Assembly: GCF_036971445.1 (NCBI RefSeq)
Contig: NC_091469.1
Location: 8,742,001-8,806,000, forward strand
DNA from: Narcine bancroftii
Lineage: Eukaryota
Reading direction: 5' to 3'
DNA length: 64,000 nucleotides
Part shown: positions 3,867 to 60,420 of the stretch, piece by piece
Layout: each line of letters opens with the position of its first letter
How positions within the stretch are numbered: position 1 is the first letter of the stretch
Program-made: the position numbers and the translations under genes
The notes under the pieces: generated by a model
The model's database searches: none
What the model saw: the letters and a program-made list of their open reading frames with translations, nothing else
Told to the model about the DNA's origin: nothing

Positions 3867-5545
3867 CCATGCATGCCATAGACAAGTCCACACCATTCCA
3901 AGTAGAGAGCAATGCATCTGACTTTAATCAAGCAGGCAGACCCATCAGCTTTTTCTCATACACCCTACAAAGCCCTGAAATTTGCCACTCTTCCATCGAG
4001 AAGGAGGCCCAGGTCATATTGGAGGCTGTACTCCACTGGAGGCAACATCTCGCTGGGAAACAGTTCACCCTCCTCACAGATCAGTGAGCTGTAGCATTCA
4101 TGTTTAATAATACGCAAAGAGGAAAAGTCAAGAATGATAAGATCCTCAGGTGGAGAATCGAGCTGTCCACTTACAACTACGACATCCTCTACTGGCCTGG
4201 CAAACTCTGGAGCCTCTGGACACTCGATCCCGAGGAACCTGTGCTAGTGTTGAAATGGACAGACTGCAGGCTCTCCACAATGACCTTTACCACCCCAGAG
4301 TTTCTAGGTTTTTCAATTTTATCAAATCTCGAAATCTACCATACTTCATTGAGGAAGTCCAGACAATGACTAAAAACTGTCAGGTCTGTGCCAAATGCAA
4401 ATTTCAATTCTATTGGCTGAACAAAGCACATATGATCAAGGCTCTCTGCTCCTTCGAGCACCTCAGCATTGATTTCAAGGGACCTCTCCCCTACTCCAAC
4501 CAGACTGTCTACTTCCTTATTATTATTGATGAATTCTCCCATTTCACCTTCACTATACCATGCCTGGACATGACCACAGCCACAGTTATCAAGGCCCTCC
4601 ATAATATCTTCATGTTCTTTGGATACCCTGTCTTCATCCACAGTGACCGAGGGTCATCATTCATAAATGATGAGCTGCAGCAGTACCTACTGGCCATAGG
4701 CATCACCATGAGCAGGACCACCAGCTATAATCCCAGGGATAATGACCAAGTGGAAAGGGAGAACACCACAGTAAGGAAGACCATTCTCCTGGCACTGAGG
4801 TCTCTCTGTCTCCCAATGGCAAGAGTCCTCCCAGACACAGTCACTTTTATGTATGGCCACCAACAATATGCCTCATGAATGGATGTTTGTTTTTCCTAGG
4901 ATCTATGCTGCCCGCCTGGCTTACCTCCCCAGGACCAGTCCTGCTCCGGAAGCACATTAGGCGATCTAAGAGTGACCCATTGGTCGAGAGGGTCCGTCTT
5001 CTCCACGCAAACCCCCAGTAAGCCTACATTGCCTTCGCTGATGGACGTGAAGACAGAGTCTTGATCCAGCACCTTGCTCCATCGGGGGCCTCACTGCTGA
5101 CCACTGACTTTCAAAAGACACCCCCCTCACTTCAACTTTAGGGATCCTGCAATCCAACCCCTACCCCTTCCAACAATGTACTGGCTCCACACACCCCCAG
5201 CACCCCACCTGTATCTGCCCCTCAACAAACTGTTAACAGACCAACCTCACAAGCTGCTCAGGGTGCTAAGGCAATGCCCCAACCACTGCCACACTGCTCG
5301 CCGCAGCAGAGGAGACCCCAAAAGGCTTAACTTCTAAAATGTACAGTTGTTTCACCCTCTCTTTTTTCTCACCCTGCAGGACCCTTCTTAAAAAGGAGGG
5401 GTAAATGTGATAAACCACTGTAATGCCATGATTGGCTGCTGCCGGCTGGACACACCTCCCGATACCAATCCTACCCATAACCCCTTGCATGCTCCCCCTT
5501 TCTCTTTGCTTCATTCAGCCTTTTGTAATTGTTGATGCCACATCA
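3867..5545 (+). mobile_element. Gypsy LTR retrotransposon, 3' half (RNase H, integrase, PPT, 3' LTR)
   Basis: RNase H GRPISFFS..EKEA..FTLLTDQ; integrase HHCC region, SIDFKGP, IHSDRG, VEREN; PPT aaaaaggagggg 5390-5401; LTR begins TG at 5406 and ends CA at about 5545. Confidence 0.9.
4150..4878 (+). pseudogene. Gypsy integrase remnant
   Basis: ORF track 242 aa with Zn-binding region and DDE residues (IDFKG, HSDRG, VERE); frameshifted at both ends. Confidence 0.85.
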
Positions 5546-8814: not shown

Positions 8815-9024
8815 CTTAACTGCTAGCCTGAGCTCCTCCCTCCTTCTCCTCTTCATTCCTCCTCTCTCCCCTCTCCTCTCTCCCCTCTCCTCTCTCCTTT
8901 CTATTTAGATGCCCATCTGATTTTGCTCATACCTTGACGAAGGGCAAGGCCCAAAACATTGGTTACTCTTTACCAGTGGATGCTGTGTGACCTACTGAGT
9001 TTCTCAAGCACATCTGTGCATTGA
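8815..9024 (+). mobile_element. Penelope-like terminal repeat fragment with CT-rich tract and degenerate hammerhead-like core
   Basis: ttgacgaagggcaaggcccaaaacattgg at about 8934-8962, followed by gatgctgtgtgacctactgagtttctc. Confidence 0.7.
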
Positions 9025-9658
9025 ACCCTGCGATGTGTTTGGAGGTTACTGGCATATTCTGGATAACATGCAGGAAGATGGGAACAAACTCTTGGGGATT
9101 GGGGTCAGGTCTGGAAGACAAAAGACTAAGCATTTGCTAGGACTTTAAACTAGTAAGGTTGGGGACAAGGGTTCATATCTGGGAGGAGAGCAAGAACAGA
9201 GTCTTTAGGCAAAGAATAAAGGCTTTTTCACCCAATCTTGAGGTGGAACAGCAGCAGGTAATAAATAGTGGCCATAGTAACGATAGTAGAGAGGGTGAGA
9301 GGCAGAAAGTTAAATATGGAAGATCTCTGAGATGCATTTATTTCAATGCAAGGAATGTGGTAAACAAGATGGATGAACTAATGGTGTGGATTGACATGTG
9401 GCATTATGATGTGATAGCAATTAGTGAGACATGGTTGAAGGAAGGTTGTGACTGGTAGCTAAATATTCCAGGATTTTGCTGCTTTAGATGTGACAGAATT
9501 GGGGTACGAGGGGGAGGTGTGGCGTTGCTTGTCAGGGAAGATATTACAGCGGTGCTGAGGCAAGACAGACTGGAGGTCTCATCGTGGGAGGCTCTGGGGG
9601 GTGAACTAAAAAATAAGAAAGGTGAGGTTACAAATATAGGGGTATAGTATAGGCCACT

Positions 9659-10795
9659 TTCATGGCTTGGTTCAGCATCATGCTGAAGACCCCAACAATG
9701 AAGACGCTGTTTACATCCGGTACCGCACGGATGGCAGTCTCTTCAATCTGAGGCGCCTGCAAGCTCACACCAAGACACAAGAGAAACTTGTCCGTGAACT
9801 ACTCTTTGCAGATGATGCCGCTTTAGTTGCCCATTCAGAGCCAGCTCTTCAGCGCTTGACGTCCTGCTTTGCGGAAACTGCCAAAATGTTTGGCCTGGAA
9901 GTCAGCCTGAAGAAAACTGAGGTCCTCCATCAGCCAGCTCCCCACCATGACTACCAGCCCCCCCACATCTCCATCGGGCACACAAAACTCAAAACGGTCA
10001 ACCAGTTTACCTATCTCGGCTGCACCATTTCATCAGATGCAAGGATCGACAATGAGATAGACAACAGACTCGCCAAGGCAAATAGCGCCTTTGGAAGACT
10101 ACACAAAAGAGTCTGGAAAAACAACCAACTGAAAAACCTCACAAAGATAAGCGTATACAGAGCCGTTGTCATACCCACACTCCTGTTCGGCTCCGAATCA
10201 TGGGTCCTCTACCGGCACCACCTACGGCTCCTAGAACGCTTCCACCAGCGTTGTCTCCGCTCCATCCTCAACATCCATTGGAGCGCTCACACCCCTAACG
10301 TCGAGGTACTCGAGATGGCAGAGGTCGACAGCATCGAGTCCACGCTGCTGAAGATCCAGCTGCGCTGGATGGGTCACGTCTCCAGAATGGAAGACCATCG
10401 CCTTCCCAAGATCGTATTATATGGCGAGCTCTCCACTGGCCACCGTGACAGAGGTGCACCAAAGAAAAGGTACAAGGACTGCCTAAAGAAATCTCTTGGT
10501 GCCTGCCACATTGACCACCGCCAGTGGGCTGATAACGCCTCAAACCGTGCATCTTGGCGCCTCACAGTTTGGCGGGCAGCAGCCTCCTTTGAAGAAGACC
10601 GCAGAGCCCACCTCACTGACAAAAGGCAAAGGAGGAAAAACCCAACACCCAACCCCAACCAACCAATTTTCCCTTGCAACCGCTGCAATCGTGTCTGCCT
10701 GTCCCGCATCGGACTGGTCAGCCACAAACGAGCCTGCAGCTGACGTGGACTTTTTACCCCCTCCATAAATCTTCGTCCGCGAAGCCAAGCCAAAG
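9659..10795 (+). mobile_element. RTE-clade LINE, 5'-truncated with short 5' inversion; 10-bp TSD ataggccact
   Basis: Open frame with LLFADD, YLG and C-terminal CxxC..H..C; TSD at 9649-9658 and 10796-10805. Confidence 0.95.
9688..10743 (+). pseudogene. RTE ORF C-terminal fragment (RT thumb plus CCHC), uninterrupted
   Basis: 358-aa ORF in the track; nearly identical to the translation of 23427-24480. Confidence 0.9.
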
Positions 10796-23426: not shown

Positions 23427-26400
23427 TCAGCTGCAGGCTCGTTTGTGGCTGACAAGTCCGATGCGGGACAGGCAGACACGGTTGCATCAGTTGCAAGGGA
23501 AGATTGGTTGGTCGGGGCTGGGTGTTGGGTTTTTCCTCCTTTGTCTTTTGTCAGTGAGGTGGGCTCTGCGGTCTTCTTCAAAGGAGGTTGCTGCCCGCCG
23601 AACTGTGAGGCGCCAAGAGGCACGGTTTGAGGCGATATCAGCCCACTGGCGATGGTCAATGTGGCAGGCACCAAGAGATTTCTTTAGGCAGTCCTTGTAC
23701 CTCTTCTTTGGTGCACCTCTGTCACAGTGACCAGTGGAGAGCTCGCCATATAACACGATCTTGGGAAGGTGATGGTCCTCCATTCTGGAGACGTGACCCA
23801 CCCAGCGCAGCTGGATCTTCAGCAGATTGGATTCGATGCTGTCGGCCTCTGCCATCTCAAGTACTTCGATGTTGGAGATGAAGTCGCTCCAATGAATGTT
23901 GAGGATGGAGCGGAGACAACGCTGGTGGAAGCGTTCTAGGAGCCGTAGGTGATGCCGGTAGAGGACCCATGATTCGGAGCCGAACAGGAGTGTGGGTATA
24001 ACAACGGCTCTGAATACGCTAATCTTTGTGAGGTTTTTCAAATGGTTGTTTTTCCAGACTCTTTTGTGTAGTCTTCCAAAGGCGCTCTTTGCCTTGGCGA
24101 GTCTGTTGTCTATCTCGTTGTCGATCCTTGCATCCGATGAAATGGTGCAGCCGAGATAGGTAAACTGGTTGTCCGTTTTGAGTTTTGTGTGCCCTATGGA
24201 GATGTGGGGGTGCTGGTAGTCATGGTGGGGAGCTGGCTGATGGAGGACCTTAGTTTTCTTCAGGCTGACTTCCAGGCCAAACATTTTGGCAGTTTCCGCA
24301 AAACAGGATGTCAAGCGCTGAAGAGCTGGCTCTGAATGGGCAACTAAAGCGGCATCGTCCGCAAAGAGTAGTTCACGGACAAGTTGCTCTTGTGTCTTGG
24401 TGTGAGCTTGCAGGCGCCTCAGATTGAAGAGACTGCCATCCGTGCGGTACTGGATATAAACAGCGTCTTCATTGTTGGGGTCTTTCATGGCTTGTTTCAG
24501 CATCTTGCTGAAGAAGATTGAAAAGAGGGTTGGTGCGAGAACGCAGCATTGCTTCATGCCATTGTTAATGGAGAAGGGTTCAGAGAGCTCATTGCTGTAT
24601 CTGACCCGACCTTGTTGGTTTTCGTGCAGTTGGATAACCATGTTGAGGAATTTTGGGGGGCATCCGAGGCGCTCTAGTATTTGCCAAAGCCCTTTCCTAC
24701 TCACGGTGTTGAAGGCTTTGGATAGGTCAACAAAGGTGATGTAGAGTCCTCTGTTTTGTTCTCTGCATTTTTCTTGGAGCTGTCTGAGTGCAAAGACCAT
24801 GTCAGTAGTTCCTCTGTTTGCGCGAAAGCCACACTGTGATTCTGGGAAAACATTTTTGGCGACACTAGGTATTATTCTATTTAGGAGAATCCTAGCGACG
24901 ATTTTGGCTGCAATGGAGTGCAGCGTGATTCCCCTGTAGTTTGAGCAGTCTGATTTCTCGCCTTTGTTTTTGTACTAGGTGATGATGATGGCATCACGAA
25001 GGTCCTGAGGCAGCTTTCCTTGGTCCCAGCAGAGCTTGAAAAACTCATGCAGTTTGGCATTCAGAGTTTTGCCGCCAGCCTTCCAGACCTCTGGGGGGAT
25101 TCCATCCATACCTGCTGCTTTGCCACTTTTCAGTTGTTCAATTGCCTTATATGTCTCTTCCCGGGTGAGGACGTCATCCAGCTCTAGCTTTAAGGGCTGT
25201 TGAGGGAGCTGGAGCAGGGCAGATTCTTGGACTGAGCGGATGGCACTGAAAAGAGATTGTATGTGTTCTGACCATCATTTGAGGATGGAGATCTTGTCGC
25301 TGAGGAGGACTTTGCCGTCTGAGCTGTGCAGCGGGCTTTGGACTTGGGATGAAGGGCCGTACACAGCCTTTAGAGCCTCGTAAAAACCCTTGAAGTCGCC
25401 AATGTCCGCGCTGAGCTGGGTTCGTTTGGCGAGGCTAGTCCAACACTCATTTTGGATCTCCCGGAGTTTGCGCTGAAGATGGCTACATGCGCGACGGAAG
25501 GCTCGCTTCTTCTCTGGCCAGGGCGGCTTTGCAAGGTGAGCCTGGTGGGCAGCTCGCTTCTTTGTCAGCAGCTCCTGGAGTTCCTGGTTGTTTTCGTCGA
25601 ACCAGTCCTTGTTTTTCCTGGAGGAGAAGCCCAGTACCTCTTCAGTGGATTGCAGTATGGCAGTCTTCAGCTGATCCCAGAGGGTTTCAGGGGACGAGTC
25701 CGTGAGGCGGATTGCATCCTCGAGCTTTGCTTGGAGGTTTGCCTGGAAGTTTCCTCTCACTTCGTCTGACTGCAAGTTTCCAACATTGAACCTCTTTCTG
25801 GGAGCTTTACTGTTCCTGGACTTTGACTTGAAGTGAAGGTTGAGCTTGCAGCGAACCAACCGGTGGTCAGTGTGGCATTCCGCGCTGGGCATGACCCTGG
25901 TGTGGAGCACATCTCGTTTGTCACTTTCTCGCACCAGGACGTAGTCCAGGAGGTGCCAGTGTTTGGATCAGGGATGCATCCAGGTAGTCTTCAGGCTGTC
26001 CCTCTGCTAAAAAAGGGTGTTTGTAATGACAAGCCGCTGTTCTGCGCAGAGCTCCAACAGGAGGCGCCCATTGTCGTTGCAGTTGCCGACACCATGCTTG
26101 CCCAGGATTCCTGGCCAGGTTTCTGAGTCTTTGCCGACGTGAGCGTTAAAGTCGCCAAGGATGACAACCTTGTTGGCTGTAGGGGTGCATTGAATGAGGT
26201 TGCGCAGATCAGCGTAGAACTTGTCCTTTTCTGCTGGTTCCGCCTGGAGGGTTGGAGCATAGACACTGATGAGGGTGATGCGACGCTTGTTTTGAAGGGG
26301 GAGTCGCATGGACATGATCCGGTCCGAGTGGGCTGTCGGGAGGTTTTCGAGTTTGGAGGCAATGGAGTTCTTGACCATGAAGCCTACACCAGATAGGCGT

Positions 26401-26663
26401 CGTTCATCCATAGGCTTGCCAGACCAGTAGAGTGTGTAGCCCACGCCGTGTTCTTGGAGGCTGCCTACATCTGCAAGGTGGACTTCACTGAGAGCGGCTA
26501 TGTTGATGTCAAGTCTGAGGAGTTAATGTGCGATGAGGGCAGACCAACGTTCAGGTCGGTGGCTGTCAGCCTTGTCTAGCATGGTTCTGATGTTCCAGCA
26601 TGCTAGCTTGAGTTTGTGAGCATCTTTTGAGGGGGAGGACGTGGAGGGGGTGGACGTGGACAT
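23427..26663 (-). pseudogene. RTE ORF (APE endonuclease plus RT plus CCHC, about 1078 codons) with a few stops and a frameshift
   Basis: ATG at 26663: MSTSTPSTSSPSKDAHKLKLACWNIRT; ISVYAPT, LGDFNA, TDHRL, FVDLSKAF, LFADD. Stops at about 26007 and 25275; frameshift near 23487. Confidence 0.92.
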
Positions 26664-26964
26664 GTCCTAAAAGCAAAGGAGCTTTTAGGTGGAGTGTAGT
26701 GCGCGCAGTACTGGCCCCACCCTTTACACCCATGGTTCATGTGCCATGGCCAAGCAAGCTGGGACGTGGCAGCGAGGTCCTTGGATCGTAGGTTTTATAA
26801 CGGAGTGGCCTTCTCCTATGCAGGTTTCTTACCCGGGCTGGAGGGGCCTGCCTCCACTCCTAGGTCGGACCATACCTGATCGCAAATCACCTGTGGACAT
26901 GGCCTAGGTAAGTTTAATTGGGTTTTCTAACTACCTCTGAGGTAGGTCAGTTGTGAGCAGTAGC

Positions 26965-27320
26965 TGCTTCACTCTGCTGAGGCCGGGGCCACCGCTTCCC
27001 CCTCGCTTCTGCCCGGACCGGGGCCTCCGCCGCCTACCTTCTGCTCGGAATGGGGCCGGTGCCGCCGCCGCCTTCCCTGTCCCCGGACCGGGGCCGCCAC
27101 CTCCTTCTTTCTGCCTGGACCGGGGCCTCCGCCTGCTTCACTCTGCCGAGGCCGGGGCCACCGCCTCCTCCTCGATTCTGCCCGGACCGGGGCCTCCGCC
27201 TGCCTCACTCTACCGAGGCCGGGGCCGCCGCCTCCCCCTCACTCTTGCCTGGATCACGGCCGACGCCATATACCCTCTGCCCCGACCGGGGTCGGGGCCA
27301 CCACTGCCTTCCCTGTGCTC
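26965..27320 (-). repeat. CpG-rich degenerate tandem repeat (about 32-38 bp units, core ccggggcc) at the RTE 5' end
   Basis: About 10 recurrences of g(a/g)ccggggcc(a/t/g)ccgcc. Confidence 0.85.
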
Positions 27321-27325
27321 GGACA

Positions 27326-29145: not shown

Positions 29146-30152
29146 GGTGAGAACTGAGGGGAGCTTGTCTCACAAAACTTAGGAAAGAAAACCCTGATTG
29201 CCATTCTGATTCCCACTGTTGGCAGAACTGCAATCCCAAGAATGATTTGACAATTTTTTTTAATGAATACAGTCATTAGCCCACATTAAAGAACAGATAA
29301 AGGAATATTATTCAAATAGGTCAAATCTTTTGCTGCGTAAATCATCAGTAATTACTGAAATAACCAGTATGTCTTTTCCTCTATTTGTTGTGTTGCAGAC
29401 ATTTCTGACTAATTCCTTGTTGAAGCTGTGATCTGAACAAGTGAGCACATCAGCATAGATTTCTCAAAAGAATTTCTATTCAGGCACAGCAGGGTGCCCC
29501 TGAACAGCAGGTAAGAGTTGAGATACAAGCAGCTTAAAGACACCCAGCTGAATGCTACATTCTTTTATTATAAACCCTTTGTGTCAGTTTGCTTTTGGTT
29601 TGAGAAAAATATCCAATCCCTTTCTTTATTTAAAAAGGAGGGAGAATGTATATAATAGAGGTAGCTGGATTACAAATGCTGTGGGACATGAGATTAATTT
29701 TCAACAAAATGCACTTTCCCTAAATAATGACCTGAAGTTCTTGGGAAATATTGAGGACAAGTCAGGTTCTAGTTGTAAGCAAATCAACAGCGCCACAGGA
29801 GATGATTTGCAGACAGCACCACAAGACAGGAAGAATTTCATATCAGAGGAAATTCAATGTCAAGGAAGCACCTCATGCCCACACAATCAATTGATGAGGA
29901 ATTTGTATATCATTAAGCAGACAGTGGGGACCATTACACAGCTGAGCATCTCAAACAAAATGATGTGAGCTGCATTGAAACATCGCTTGTCCCTTTAATG
30001 GTTGACATTGATGGCTGATAAATTTAGCATCCAAGAGTAGATTAGGTAACATTTATACCTTGCTTTGGAAAGTGACATTTACAACTCTCGTAAGTCAATG
30101 CATTTTCAGTAGGCCCCAGATTTGATTGCAATAGATCAAACACACAAAAAAT

Positions 30153-30153
30153 A

Positions 30154-30179
<26 letters not shown>
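30153..30179. repeat. (TA)n microsatellite
   Basis: Direct reading. Confidence 0.95.
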
Positions 30180-30184
<5 letters not shown>

Positions 30185-30584
30185 TGTGTGTTTTTATTGT
30201 ACATTTTCTTGAAGCATTTTAAAAACACAATATTGCCGTTCCTATTCCATGTCAACCCTAAACTCAGCTTTCATTTTTGTCAAATGTTAGACCTGTTTTC
30301 ATTTTAGTTTGGCTGGTGGACATATAATGCAGCAACCTTCAAATGTGAATGGCTTTCATTTTTGTCACCTAATTTCCAGGGCAAATAAAATAATTTGTTG
30401 CCATAAAGAATGCAGTTAATTGCATTTATATGTCATGAAAAATCAGCTGCTGAGAGCCATTTGCATCGATCTGAAGATAACTGAAAATTGCTTATCCATT
30501 TGTTCAGAATGAATGAAGCAGCTGCCGGCAGCCTCGTCAAAAGCCAACACTTCACAGCTGAGAAGTTTATGATGACAAAGTGAG

Positions 30585-35046: not shown

Positions 35047-35419
35047 TTATTCCAAATGGGGCCTCACCAACATCTTTTCCAACTACAACAAGACTTCCCA
35101 ACTTCAGTAATCAGTATGCTGATTGATGAAGGTCAATGTGCCAAGATTTTTTTAGCCACCCCATCTACCCGGTGATACCATTTTCAAGGTACTATATACT
35201 CCTTGATCCCTCTGATCCACAGTACTCCCCAGATCCCTACCTTTCACTGTTTGTGTTCCTCCCTTTGACCTTCCAAAATTCAACACTTCACATTTTTCTG
35301 TATTAAATTCCATCAACCATTCATCTGCCCACCTGCCCAACTGATCAAGATATTGCTGCAATCTATGGCAACAGTATTCACTTTGTACATCATCCACAAG
35401 CTTATTAATTATGTCACAT

Positions 35420-35901
35420 TTTCTTTCTTTGGCTTGGCTTCGCGGATGAAGATTTATGGAGGTGGTAAAAAGTCCACGTCAGCTGCAGGCTCGTTTGTGG
35501 CTGACAAGTCCGATGCGGGACAGGCAGACACGGTTGCAGCGGTTGCAGGGGAAAATTGGTTGGTTGGGGTTGGGTGTTGGGTTTTTCCTCCTTTGCCTTT
35601 TGTCAGTGAGGTGGGCTCTGCGGTCTTCTTCAAAGGAGGTTGCTGCCCGTCAAACTGTGAGGCGCCAAGATGCATGGTTTGAGGCGTTATCAGCCCACTG
35701 GCGGTGGTCAATGTGGCAGGCACCAAGAGATTTCTTTAGGCAGTCCTTGTACCTTTTCTTTGGTGCACCTCTGTCACGGTGGCCAGTGGAGAGCTCGCCA
35801 TATAACACGATCTTGGGAAGGCGATGGTCCTCCATTCTGGAGACGTGACCCATCCAGCGCAGCTGGATCTTCAGCAGCGTGGACTCGATGCTGTCGACCT
35901 C
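35420..35901 (-). mobile_element. RTE 3' fragment, 8-bp TSD tgtcacat
   Basis: Near-identical to the 3' part of 9659-10795; TSD at 35412-35419 and 35902-35909. Confidence 0.95.
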
Positions 35902-35919
35902 TGTCACATACCCCATTGA

Positions 35920-38862: not shown

Positions 38863-40050
38863 CTTTATACTATTCCTAGGTTGACTTTCCCCTGCTATTT
38901 TTTACCTCTACCTAAGAGGACTTTTGATCTTATAAGCTGAGATCATCCCACTGAACTGTATGTATTAGCAGAGCTATCCTGCCATCATTTATTTTATCAT
39001 TCCTCCCTCTGTTCCTAATTCACATCTTCCAGTCCAGTGACGATATATTTGAAATATTATTAATTTAATGAACAGACATTATATTCTTTCTTTGGCTTGG
39101 CTTCGCGGACGAAGATTTATGGAGGGGGTAAAAAGTCCACGTCAGCTGCAGGCTCGTTTGTGGCTGACAAGTCCGATGCGGGACAGGCAGACACGATTGC
39201 AGCGGTTGCAAGGGAAAATTGGTTGGTTGGGGTTGGGTGTTGGGTTTTTCCTCCTTTGCCTTTTGTCAGTGAGGTGGGCTCTGCGGTCTTCTTCAAAGGA
39301 GGCTGCTGCCCGCCAAACTGTGAGGCGCCAAGATGCACGGTTTGAGGCGTTATCAGCCCACTGGCGGTGGTCAATGTGGCAGGCACCAAGAGATTTCTTT
39401 AGGCAGTCCTTGAAGACATTATATTAGCAAGGAACAAAATCACAACCACCAGTGTCAGGAAATTGTGTAAAATTATTAATTCTCCATTCCCTGATACTCT
39501 AATTTCTGAGAAGCAAATGCCACATCATTCAGACAGACCCCAGAAATACAAACTCTGCTGGCTTGTTAGCACTGAACACATTCATATAATTTTCATAAAT
39601 TTGTCCACAAATCCATCATTAATTAAAGATTATGTTTCTAATATATGGTTTTATCCATGACAGCTGGTGTGAAATGTGTTCACTGTTAAATTGCTTTACA
39701 CGTCCTTTCAAGTTTTATATTCGTCAGATCGGAATTCGTGATTTCATTTTAATGACATAGAATAGTATATTTAGAAATTAGTTATTTCATATTTAAATAC
39801 ATTTTATATTAAATTCTTGCCAATGTGTTATTTGCATAAAAAGGATTACTTTCAAAGTAACATTAGATAAATCATTAGATTGGTCTTCACAGCAAGATAA
39901 TGTCAGGAAACTTAAAGCCAATACAGTGTGGATTACTGCTGAGCTGATTTATTTCAGTGCTTTGCTGTAACAATGGAGAACTTACTTCATCAATAGTAGA
40001 GGTCAGGCTTAGAGGAATCAAAACACCCCTTGTCTGACATGAAATTATTG
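38609..40050. repeat. Inverted duplication, arms 38609-38736 and 39923-40050 (128 bp, no mismatch seen)
   Basis: Direct comparison; identical 42-aa translation on opposite strands in the ORF track. Confidence 0.97.
39086..39413 (-). mobile_element. RTE 3' fragment, 12-bp TSD agacattatatt
   Basis: TSD at 39074-39085 and 39414-39425; near-identical to about 10473-10795. Confidence 0.95.
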
Positions 40051-45937: not shown

Positions 45938-46954
45938 TTGGAGGGCGGGATGGGATGAGTATTAATGTGACTGATGTCCAGAAGCTGGTTGTCACCTGAA
46001 AGGGATAAGGACGTAATGTGGATATTGGAGTAGTAAGGGGAGGTTGGAGGGGGGGATGGGATGAGTATTAATGTGACTGATGTCCAGAAGCTGGTTGGCA
46101 CCTGAAAGGGATAAGGAAGTAATGTGGATATTGGAGTAGTAAGGGGAGGTTGGAGGGGGGATGGGATGAGTATTAATGTGACAGATGTCCATTAGCTGGT
46201 TGGCACCTGAAAGGGATAAGGAAGTAATGTGGATATAGGAGTAGTAAGGGGAGGTTGGAGGGGGGATGGGATGAGTATTAATGTGACAGATGTCCATTAG
46301 CTGGTTGGCACCTGGAAGGGATAAGGAAGTAATGTGGATATTGGAGTAGTAAGGGGAGGTTGGAGGGGGGATGGGATGAGTATTAATGTGACTGATGTCC
46401 AGAAGCTGGTTGGCACCTGAAAGGGATAAGGAAGTAATGTGGATATTGGAGTAGTAAGGGGAGGTTGGAGGGGGGATGGGATGAGTATTAATGTGACAGA
46501 TGTCCATTAGCTGGTTGGCACCTGAAAGGGATAAGGAAGTAATGTGGATATTGGAGTAGTAAGGGGAGGTTGGAGGGGGGATGGGATGAGTTTTAATGTG
46601 ACAGATGTCCATTAGCTGGTTGGCACCTGGAAGGGATAAGGAAGTAATGTGGATATTGGAGTAGTAAGGGGAGGTTGGAGGGGGGATGGGATGAGTATTA
46701 ATGTGACTGATGTCCATTAGCTGGTTGGCACCTGAAAGGGATAAGGAAGTAATGTGGATATTGGAGTAGTAAGGGGAGGTTGGAGGGGGGATGGGATGAG
46801 TTTTAATGTGACTGATGTCCATTAGCTGGTTGTCACCTGAAAGGGATAAGGAAGTAATGTGGATATTGGAGTAGTAAGGGGAGGTTGGAGAGGGGATGGG
46901 ATGAGTATTAATGCGACTGATGTCCAGAAGCTGGTTGGCACCTGAAAGGGATAA
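45938..46954. repeat. 105-bp minisatellite, about 9.7 near-identical copies
   Basis: (a/t)ttaatg anchor at 45961, 46067, 46172, 46277, 46382, 46487, 46592, 46697, 46802, 46907. Confidence 0.98.
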
Positions 46955-51460: not shown

Positions 51461-52359
51461 TGGATTTGTTCAAAGCAGGCAAATGGAACTCATTCAGAAC
51501 GTCAGCTTGGTTGATATCGGGATGAGCTGGGCTGAATGATCATTCAGTGTGATTATCAGCTTGAGGGAGCTCAGAGATACCTGTCTAACTCAATATCCAC
51601 TCTCAGTTTCACCAATTGACAACTTTTTGGGGGGGCCTGTGTGCCTATTTGAGGTAGATTTGATCATGGGTGTTTACTTAAGGTTTGAGAGCTGTCCACT
51701 ACGATGGACATTTTAAACTCTCTACCCACAACAACCAGCCTCGTTCATCATTGGATGGTTTATATCAAGAACATATTTTGCTCTGATGTTCCCACCACAC
51801 CATCTTACACATTGGGACTCTGAATGAATTGGCCCTGGATTTCAGGAGGTGAGAAATACTGGTGGCAATAATGTGATGCTATGGTTGAACACCCTACCAT
51901 TTTATCTGCATGTTTGTAGGCTCATCATCAGAGCGGATCTATCAACAAAACATCTTTCAGAATGGTGGAATAGACATCAGTGCCTGGTTCAGTCATGTTT
52001 TAACATCAGAGCACATGGTACACGTAGTCTTCACAGCAGTACACAAGAGTGCTGGAGAAACTTAGCAGGTCACACTGAATCTATGTGTGTATATGGATTC
52101 TGCATGCACTTCACATGTACTCATTCAATTATAGGCTGATTTTGGTTCATTAACCAACAGCTAGCCTGAGCCTGTTAATATCCTGGTTGTCTGAAAATTT
52201 GAGAAAGCAGCCCAGGAATGGATAAATGCAGGTGGTCCAGCTCTGTTAATTATACCTGTGTTCTGATGCTGTTAATTTAACACCCTGATTCTTGACACAT
52301 TAAGCCTTTGGAACCTCTGACAGGCTTCATTTCACTTCCTTGCTCCAGAAGACAATAAG

Positions 52360-52650
52360 AAAACACACAAAACTGCAGGAGGATTTCTGGAGCTCTTGCA
52401 GCATTCATAGGAATTAAATATATATTACCAATGTTTCTGGCCTGAGCCCTTCCTCAAGGCACGAGTAAAAAGCAGGCAGTGTCTGAGTAAAAATCAGGCA
52501 TCTGCCTGCTTTTCGAATATCTTGAAGAAGGGCTCAGGTCCGAAACGTCAGTAACGTATAATTTCCTCCTTTGGATGTTGCGAGAGCTCCTGAGTTCATC
52601 CAGCATTTCTGTGTTTTTACTACAATCACAGCATCCTCTAACTTCCTTGT
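52360..52650. mobile_element. Penelope-derived palindrome with a hammerhead-like core in each arm
   Basis: Right arm cttgaagaagggctcaggtccgaaacgtc; left arm is its reverse complement tgtttctggcctgagcccttcctcaag. Confidence 0.8.
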
Positions 52651-58679: not shown

Positions 58680-60420
58680 GCCAGATCCCCTGAAATTTCT
58701 ACACAAGCCTCCATCAAGTTCTAAGGGAATAACTAGTCAGTCTTGGGAATTTATGCACCCTTATTTGCTTTAAGACAGCAAGCACTTCCTCCTCTTTAAT
58801 CTGTATAGGTTCCTTGACCACACTGCTTGTTTTCCGTACTTCCCACAACTCTGTGCCTATTTCCTGAGTGAATACTGATTAAAAAAAAACATTTCAGACT
58901 TCTTCCATCTCTTTTAACTGCATACAAAGCCGACGACTCTGATCTTCAAGGGGACCAATTTTGTCCCTTACTATCCTTTTGTTCTTAATATACCTTTAGA
59001 AACCCTTATGATTTTCCTTCACATTGTCTGCCAAAGCGACCACACGTTGTCTTTTAGTCTTCCTGATTTATTTCTTGAGGAATTTCTTGCATTTGTTATA
59101 TTCCTCAAGTACCTCATTTGTTCCATGTTGCCAATATCAGTTGTACACCTCTCTTGTTCCGAACCAGATCCCCAATACCCACAAAAACCAAGGTTCTCTA
59201 TACCTTCTAATCTTGCATTTGATCCTGACAGGAATAAACAAACTCTGTACTCTCAAAATTTCACCTTTGTAGGTCTTCCATTTACCTTGCACATCCTTGT
59301 CAGAAACATTCTATCCCAATCCAAGAATTCTAGATCATTTCTTATCTCCTCAAAGATGGCCTTTCTCCAATTTAGAATCTCAACTTGAGGCCCAGACCTA
59401 TCCCTCCCCATTATTAATGTGAAACTAATTATATTATGATCATTGGAACCAAAATGTTCCCTTACACATAATTCTGTCACCTGTCCTGTCTTGTTTTCTA
59501 ATATGTGATTCAGTATTGCACTCTCTCCAGTTGGTACCTCTATATATTGATTTAGAAAACTTTTCTCAACATATTTGACAAATTACCAGCCACCCAGCCC
59601 TTTTACAGTATGGGAGTCCCAGGTTAAAATCCCCTACTATCACAACTTTGTTTCCTACAGCTTCTGCTATCTCTCTACAGATTTGCTCCTCCAAGTCTCA
59701 TTGACTATTGGAGGGTCTATAATACAACCCATGAGTGAATGGGGAAGGGGCAGAGTTGTAGCAGCGTGGGGTGGAGTCTGAGCGATGGAAAGAACGGAGT
59801 CAGAGTGGCAGGGGGCCCCCTGCCTCTCCGACTCCGAGACCCTTCCCCATACAACCCTCAGTTCCACGCATATAGCCTCAGTAGTCACGCCCTCTGATCT
59901 GTCCTGCCAGAGCACAGCTGTGATATTTCCCCTGATGAGCAATGCCACTCATCCTCCTTTCATCCCCCCAATTCAAAAGAAGCCCAGATTAATGAGCTGC
60001 CTGTCCTGCCCTTCCTCCAACCATGCCACAATGTAGAAATTCCACATGCCAATCCATGCTCTAAGCTTGCCTGCCTTTCCTACAATACTCCTTCATTGAA
60101 ATAGATGCATCTGAGAAAATTTCCACCACGTTGACTTCTAAGGGAGCATACAATTTTAACATAATCTTTTCCCTCCTCCACTGCTCTATCTGCTCTGACA
60201 CACTGGTTCCCCTCCCCCTGCAAATCTAGTTGAAACCCACTGGAGCAGCACTAGCAAATCTGCCCACAAAGATATTAGTCTCCTTCCCGTTCAAATGCAA
60301 ACCATTCCATCGGAACAAGTCCCACCTTGCCTAGAAGAGAGCCCAATGATCCAGAAACCTGAAGCCCTCTCTTCTACACCATGTTTTTAGCCATTTGTTA
60401 AGCTGCATTATCCTCCCAAT
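58680..60420 (-). mobile_element. CR1 fragment (ORF1 3' end plus EN), with foreign insert 59732-59816
   Basis: WDLFRWNGLHLN; ALLIRGNITAV; EHFGSNDHN. Confidence 0.85.

Follow-up and report, generated by a model that had tools for sequence, protein, structure and literature searches.

A short inverted 5' junction in a young RTE retrotransposon copy of Narcine bancroftii, with twin priming as its probable origin

RESULTS

A truncated RTE copy with an inverted 5' end

The window analyzed here is a stretch of 64,000 nucleotides from Narcine bancroftii (assembly GCF_036971445.1, contig NC_091469.1, positions 8,742,001 to 8,806,000); coordinates count from its first base. Four copies of one LINE family, denoted A to D, lie within it (Table 1). 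Copy A is a front-truncated LINE, assigned below to the RTE clade, with an insert of 1,137 bases (9659-10795) placed inside another LINE. The two 10-base sequences that border it are identical and form the longest repeat found between the two ends of the insert. The edges of the left target-site duplication (TSD) are ambiguous, its first base being common to the 3' tail and its last 2 to the inverted piece, and this single TSD encloses the inverted and the sense pieces together. In the sense part, a frame stays open for 350 codons (9691-10743) and is followed by a short 3' untranslated region and one AAAG tail unit.

Table 1. Features of copy A, its host element, and the sister copies in the window
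Feature	Position	Strand	Remarks
Host element, left part	9337..9658	+	Endonuclease-type LINE frame, resuming past the right TSD
Left TSD	9649..9658	+	10 bases, identical to the right one
Match of target end to RTE template, candidate second-priming site	9657..9658	+	2 bases
Inverted RTE piece	9657..9689	-	Unambiguous core 9659-9685; 31/33 to 24482-24514
7-bp hairpin within the flipped piece	9671..9687	.	Fold analysis; present in the template too
Microhomology at the inversion joint, common to antisense and sense pieces	9686..9689	.	4 bases
Sense 3' part of RTE, copy A	9686..10795	+	End of the reverse transcriptase (RT) domain and C-terminus
Right TSD	10796..10805	+	10 bases
Host element, right part	10806..11271	+	Exo_endo_phos_2, E 2e-6
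Copy B, near-full decayed RTE, uninverted	23380..26960	-	5' end approximate; comparison template 24482-24514
Copy C, 5'-truncated RTE	35412..35909	-	8-base TSD, 2-base 5' microhomology, no inversion
Copy D, 5'-truncated RTE	39074..39425	-	12-base TSD, 1 additional base at the 5' joint, uninverted

Between the left TSD and the sense part lies a piece of 27 to 33 bases, depending on the assignment of the ambiguous edge bases, which on the minus strand reads as the RT coding sequence immediately upstream of the sense part. It matches copy B in the same direction, and copy B is itself on the minus strand, so the piece is antisense RTE. The match has two mismatches (9670 and 9680), ends abruptly on both sides, and reaches E = 1e-6 in a self-BLAST of the window; shuffled versions of the 33-mer (n = 200) matched copy B at 21/33 positions at best and 17.9 on average. 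The sense part begins at 9686-9690, at the same template position where the antisense piece begins, and aligns to copy B (24484-23380) with 1049 matches and 55 mismatches. The two breakpoints abut within 3 bases, with 3 bases lost, none, or 3 doubled according to the side to which the shared bases are allotted. In the template, the flipped piece comes from upstream of the sense start; it occurs once, with nothing duplicated, and is ∼35 times shorter than the sense piece (about 30 versus 1,110 bases). At the outer joint, the target end matches the template by 2 bases only, for which the chance is 1 in 16.

An earlier reading of this DNA, made from the sequence alone, had reported an antisense segment of ∼30 nucleotides right after the TSD and drawn from just upstream of the sense part, a sense part resuming at the same template point, and a TSD end matching the template. 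All three elements of that description hold: the segment agrees with 24482-24514 at 31 of 33 positions, the breakpoints lie within 3 bases of each other, and the last 2 TSD bases (9657-9658) continue the template antisense. The 4-base overlap at the inner joint and the 7-bp hairpin are additions to that description. The 5' micro-inversion in this young RTE copy, private to the locus, is confirmed as real.

The flipped piece carries no stop in the RT C-terminal frame, and an open frame of 367 codons (9640-10743) runs through it, beginning in the flank without an ATG start. Fold analysis of the template also predicts a stem-loop at 24481-24526, of average stability for the element; the sense part of copy A starts at the 3' foot of this structure.

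The host element and the sister copies

When the insert and one TSD are removed, the host flanks join into a single endonuclease-type frame. The left part (9337-9658) has multi-copy cover and uninterrupted paralogous sites in contigs from sequencing runs; the Exo_endo_phos_2 match of the right part scores 28 bits against a cut-off of 27.4. By its motifs, we take the host to be a CR1-type element.

Copy B, which the sequence-only reading had used as the full copy for comparison, is indeed near full length and uninverted but decayed: its endonuclease and RT, matching Exo_endo_phos and RVT_1, fall in three open stretches of one frame with stops between them. Neither a TSD of at least 7 bases around copy B nor an upstream open reading frame (ORF) of at least 150 codons within it was found. 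Immediately upstream of its 5' end lies a GC-rich imperfect tandem repeat (26964-27324).

Copies C and D differ from copy A by 11 mismatches in 480 aligned bases and 1 mismatch in 323, respectively. Given these few differences and the 350-codon open frame, copy A is placed in a young subfamily. One of the three TSD-flanked truncated RTE copies in the window is inverted (A, not C or D).

Elsewhere in the window, self-comparison indicated several palindromes, of which two (13206-13239 and 30138-30195) are AT-dinucleotide runs and a third (59795-59836) lies within a GC-rich repeat; further palindromes are at 22592-22713 and 52358-52621. A tandem array with a period of 105 bases occupies 45938-46954 (about 9.7 copies, 95 to 97% identical). 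Open frames at 4141-4878 and 16824-17300 are presumably LTR-retrotransposon integrase fragments, judged by motifs.

Assignment to the RTE clade

The membership of copies A to D in the RTE clade is well supported by comparison of layout, ends, and proteins. In RTE elements, the ORF encodes an APE endonuclease followed by the RT. This single-ORF layout is found in copy B, with endonuclease then RT in one frame. A single ORF and a short 5' UTR are described for the clade (PMC13174262). The 3' ends are short tandem repeats without poly(A), namely, AAAG units in copies A, C, and D and AG units in copy B. The target signature Tn-TA of Bov-B comprises a T stretch ∼10 bases before a cut between T and A (PMC13295347); a T-A step marks the TSD start in all three copies with TSDs (A, C, and D), and the upstream T stretch is present in C and D and absent in A.

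The nearest named proteins are from Narcine bancroftii itself (up to 93% identity), followed by those of marine invertebrates, fish, and suboscine birds. The solved L1 ORF2p and R2 proteins match over only ∼150 residues (E 2e-14 to 4e-10), and the best L1 entries match the protein of the copy over about 155 residues with E values of 7e-12 to 3e-11. AviRTE, an element of suboscine birds, clusters with the RTEs of aquatic animals (PMC4844689), and the seven suboscine proteins compared here, 61 to 70% identical, may correspond to it under different database names. By eye, the AviRTE primer pair 4F/R resembles the RT sequence of copy A and matches the 3' end motif before its tail, the tail repeat itself being different; the TSDs of copies A, C, and D measure 8 to 12 bases versus 13 in the AviRTE example (PMC4844689).

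DNA pattern scans for the family gave no loci in viral and metagenome contigs, and a protein scan for RTE relatives gave none in viral contigs. The protein scan did recover three metagenome loci (61 to 68% identity) and one genome locus (37%), none of which (0/4) has an antisense match; these relatives are too distant to reveal a 30-base flip. A search for shorter homologs returned no ray proteins among the best 120. The 37% RT relative (L004, 3001-4611) is broken and lies in a contig of a Metamycoplasmataceae metagenome-assembled genome, where it is probably host DNA in the bin.

Sequencing-run contigs over the locus

Contigs of four runs carrying four organism labels (of eleven listed) were compared with positions 9000-11400; 32 of 86,390 contig pieces and 15 of 88 joints were listed from this comparison. 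The uninverted arrangement, a joint of 9657 to 9689 on opposite strands, occurs in all four runs (depths 858.6, 23.9, 90, and 64.5). The loose ends at 9657 and 9689 run on into ordinary RTE sequence, which beyond 9689 is the normal upstream RTE in X1, X6, and X9. Since 4/4 runs and copy B have the uninverted joint, the master form lacks the flip. Among the 15 listed of 88 joints, the inversion is private to the insertion and absent from the source element, though rare inverted sources may exist; an inversion shared with a master subfamily, which the sequence-only reading had named as the observation that would speak against its interpretation, is not what the listed joints of the four runs show. 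The junction of flank and inversion is bridged by none of the 32 listed of 86,390 pieces, which neither confirms nor refutes it.

At four of the 15 listed joints, all in X1 and each with the depth of a single locus, the antisense piece is followed by the sense body: 9689 is joined to 9920, to 9959, and to 10027, and 9682 is joined to 10616. Three of these resume within 340 bases (rough p 0.015, with contig depth as proxy and from a partial list); at the 10027 joint, the two intervening letters continue the antisense sequence, after which 3 bases overlap. All four are antisense-to-sense junctions belonging to other copies and may reflect inversions or opposite-strand nested insertions, and the resumption of three of them near the antisense end is only a hint at inversion. 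RTE-in-RTE nested or tandem insertions are common in the family of copy A, with the 3' tail (10794-10796) joined to internal RTE positions in 8 of 12 listed rows.

Joints that skip the insertion (9648 to 10796, 9651 to 10806, and 9654 to 10806) were considered as an empty allele; they have other letters at the site and are read as paralogous host copies. Base 9670 of copy A, within the flipped piece, differs from copy B, from the X1/X5 loose-end consensus, and from the Narcine protein P0029, against which it gives an Asn instead of a Lys codon; it may be a subfamily variant or a copying error. Finally, contigs of X6 and X9 are identical to copy A over 203 and 373 bases, respectively (within 9689-10415), at depths far below that of X1. 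This identity may stem from close kinship, recent horizontal transfer, or contamination.

Antisense RTE in Narcine gene models

Fifteen proteins of Narcine, two of them isoforms from a single locus, were compared with the RTE. In nine, the N-terminus lies outside the sense RTE, and in two of those nine, antisense RTE directly precedes the sense part. In P0196 (XP_069761066.1), residues 14-36 are the antisense of copy B (22/23, E 6e-16), starting about 180 bases upstream of the sense start; the inner joint is compatible with a GT..AG splice, and neither copy A nor copy B offers an acceptor that would suit the left edge. An origin of its first 13 residues from the CR1 host, an idea based on motifs, is unsupported by the window. 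In P0029 (XP_069745531.1), residues 1-9 match the antisense at 8/9 positions about 770 bases upstream of the sense start, with no evident GT..AG fit. A match of 8/9 was not reached in 300 shuffles; the E value, 0.004, does not stand out from the decoys, which gave 31 hits at E ≤ 0.02 across 319 proteins, and the case rests on position. Three others of the five antisense hits at E ≤ 0.02 in the 319 proteins (P0158, P0168, and P0264) were set aside as decoy noise or as lying off the N-terminal junction. Both retained antisense pieces, known as protein sequences only, come from upstream of the sense part, as twin priming requires. Splicing or nested insertion could be the source of the antisense-sense order in these gene models and in the X1 joints. 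RTE sequence makes up nearly all of a further Narcine protein, P0193, annotated as small ribosomal subunit protein mS40 isoform X1, through either misannotation or exonization.

DISCUSSION

Origin of the inversion

Twin priming is reportedly the model that Ostertag and Kazazian put forward in 2001 for inverted L1 copies. We consider it probable that this process, acting during target-primed reverse transcription of an RTE RNA, made the inversion of copy A; the likelihoods given here and below are judgements rather than computed values. After a nick in the bottom strand by the endonuclease, a first cDNA would be started at the 3' tail and extended over about 1.1 kb. A nick in the top strand, 10 bases away, would free a 3' end that forms 2 base pairs with the RNA where the first cDNA had got to and primes a second cDNA running the other way. 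Annealing of the two cDNAs would follow at the nearest 4-base complement, some 30 bases along the second, after which the excess of the second cDNA would be trimmed and the gaps filled. What is observed is the end product, with both microhomologies, in a young copy of an element whose master form is uninverted; each of the reaction steps is inferred. Stalling of the first cDNA at a strong RNA structure is unsupported: the stability of the 60-base segment there is at the median, 52% of 1,174 such segments being at least as stable.

Several features favor twin priming. The pieces follow the order of TSD, antisense upstream piece, sense piece, tail, and TSD, with nothing duplicated; microhomology is present at both junctions, as in inverted L1 copies (PMC2912911); and the 10-base TSD falls in the 10- to 20-base range of inverted L1 inserts (PMC4245944). 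The uninverted joint in all four runs, with loose ends that go on as normal RTE, points the same way, as does the antisense-then-sense order in two of the nine Narcine gene models whose N-terminus is not sense RTE and at four of the 15 listed joints. Conversely, the flip of 27 to 33 bases is far from the L1 median of 0.54 kb, and its ends abut, whereas 83% of inverted L1 copies have an internal deletion or duplication (bioRxiv 2024.08.27.596794); both points disfavor twin priming. The case is further weakened by the 1-in-16 chance of the 2-base priming match and because no listed contig piece (32 of 86,390) spans the junction. The sequence-only reading had held that this geometry defines twin priming, which goes too far: the TSD and both microhomologies fit, but abutting breakpoints also allow a hairpin or a microinversion.

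The hairpin alternative, which we regard as unlikely, is that the cDNA end annealed to itself and the loop was opened by a nick. Here, the cDNA would have reached the far end of the flip, and its last 4 bases would have folded back across 26 and primed the second strand; a repair nuclease would then open the base of the loop, which would be ligated to the top strand of the target, and one reverse transcription would be enough. When the ends abut, this yields a sequence identical to that left by twin priming. It also predicts a short flip, and the short loop, seemingly unusual in that a 4-base inverted match exists within 30 bases at just 11.9% of template positions, suits this route. Self-annealing and cleavage of a 3' flap have been proposed for inversions at L1 ends, one of which lay on the primary RT end (bioRxiv 2024.12.14.628481). 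However, the cDNA end prefers an inner 7-bp hairpin (-5.9 versus -3.2 kcal/mol) that would give another junction; that the fold for self-priming is 2.7 kcal/mol worse than the preferred one (end-pair probability 0.013, computed on the copy B sequence) favors twin priming. The 2-base match of the target end would also have no role and must be chance, and antisense pieces 180 to 770 bases upstream in other copies, if genomic, would be left unexplained.

The same end product could arise from an ordinary truncated copy, joined by a 2-base 5' microhomology, in which 26 bases were later flipped in place at 3- to 4-base inverted repeats through template switching or break repair. The size would be in keeping with human-chimpanzee microinversions, which include cases of 17 to 33 bases with flanking inverted repeats that can be as short as 3 (PMC8755829), and a hairpin does lie inside the flipped piece. 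We judge such a microinversion to be very unlikely, as comparison of the human and chimpanzee genomes yielded only 59 definite cases (PMC8755829) and the event would need to have fallen precisely on the 5' junction of a copy 1 base in 323 from its sister; given that youth, a later rearrangement had little time to occur. An assembly or library artifact at a repeat edge is highly improbable. The great abundance of the family (summed X1 contig depth in millions), a gap of N in the window, and the lack of a bridging piece among the 32 listed of 86,390 speak for it; against it, the TSD is intact, the host frame is continuous across the site, the breakpoints abut with microhomology at both ends, and the flip has the family-type base at 9680 (loose-end consensus), where the change is private to copy B. 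We give almost negligible probability to fold-back (snap-back) synthesis of the R2 or polymerase-theta kind, whereby a cDNA end is extended with its own sequence as template. Like copy A, R2 snap-back products have antisense element sequence joined to the upstream target, and such antisense 5' junctions are documented for R2 inserts (PMC11371274); they duplicate downstream sequence within the insert, whereas the flip of copy A derives from upstream of the sense start and occurs a single time, without duplication.

Comparison with known 5' inversions

About 30% of young human and chimpanzee L1 copies are 5' inverted, versus 1 of 5,554 Alu copies (PMC2912911). Copy A resembles mammalian twin-primed L1 in the order of its parts, in the microhomology at both joints, and in its 10-base TSD. 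It differs from L1 in having one ORF, a short-repeat tail without poly(A), and a protein remote from L1 ORF2p, as well as in its flip of about 30 bases against a median of 540 and the lack of an internal deletion or duplication. In inverted L1 copies, the median inverted and forward lengths are 0.54 kb and 1.51 kb, and the two lengths correlate (R 0.76; bioRxiv 2024.08.27.596794); in copy A, they are out of proportion, the inverted part being ∼35 times shorter than the forward part versus 2.6 times. In cultured cells, every inversion but one came from L1 in human cells, RTE not being among the elements tested, and 5' inversion is regarded as almost exclusive to mammalian L1 in human cells (PMC4245944). 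The exception, a single insert of Nimb-2_DR in chicken DT40 cells, is like copy A a non-L1 LINE with a 5' inversion, and has a TSD near 12 bases; it belongs to another clade and was engineered in cultured cells, unlike the natural genomic RTE copy (PMC4245944).

Literature searches gave no report of RTE 5' inversions; Ichiyanagi and Okada 2008 and Kojima and Okada 2009 may hold counts for RTE. The word "inversion" occurs only in the references of the RTE-signature paper (PMC6007223) and is absent from the main texts of the Bov-B (PMC13295347) and AviRTE (PMC4844689) papers; in the available text of PMC4476161 and PMC13174262, twin priming is invoked for L1 chimeras only.

Implications for RTE retrotransposition

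The finding is most likely that of a known mechanism in a clade for which no report of it was found, with one direct locus and hints from others. The proposal of the sequence-only reading that this RTE can twin-prime receives suggestive, indirect support from other copies, but it concerns a single locus at which rival routes yield the same sequence; that the family twin-primes generally is likewise suggestive. That twin priming is a regular pathway of the RTE clade, affecting a few to ten percent of the longer copies, seems to us plausible, at a little under an even chance. The copy A locus itself has no evident function.

An inverting RTE, with a single ORF and no poly(A), would separate the possible causes of inversion, namely, overhang length, ORF1p, tail type, and host repair. 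The family is abundant and young, with TSDs of 8 to 12 bases, and can therefore serve to test the proposed overhang of at least about 10 bases for second priming. The finding also bears on the timing of the second-strand cut in RTE insertion and, if RTE proteins serve as insertion tools, on junction fidelity. If true, very short flips would be systematically missed by repeat annotation, twin priming would proceed without need of ORF1p, a poly(A) tail, or a mammalian host, and the pathway would be general to APE-type LINEs with a staggered-cut overhang of about 10 bases or more.
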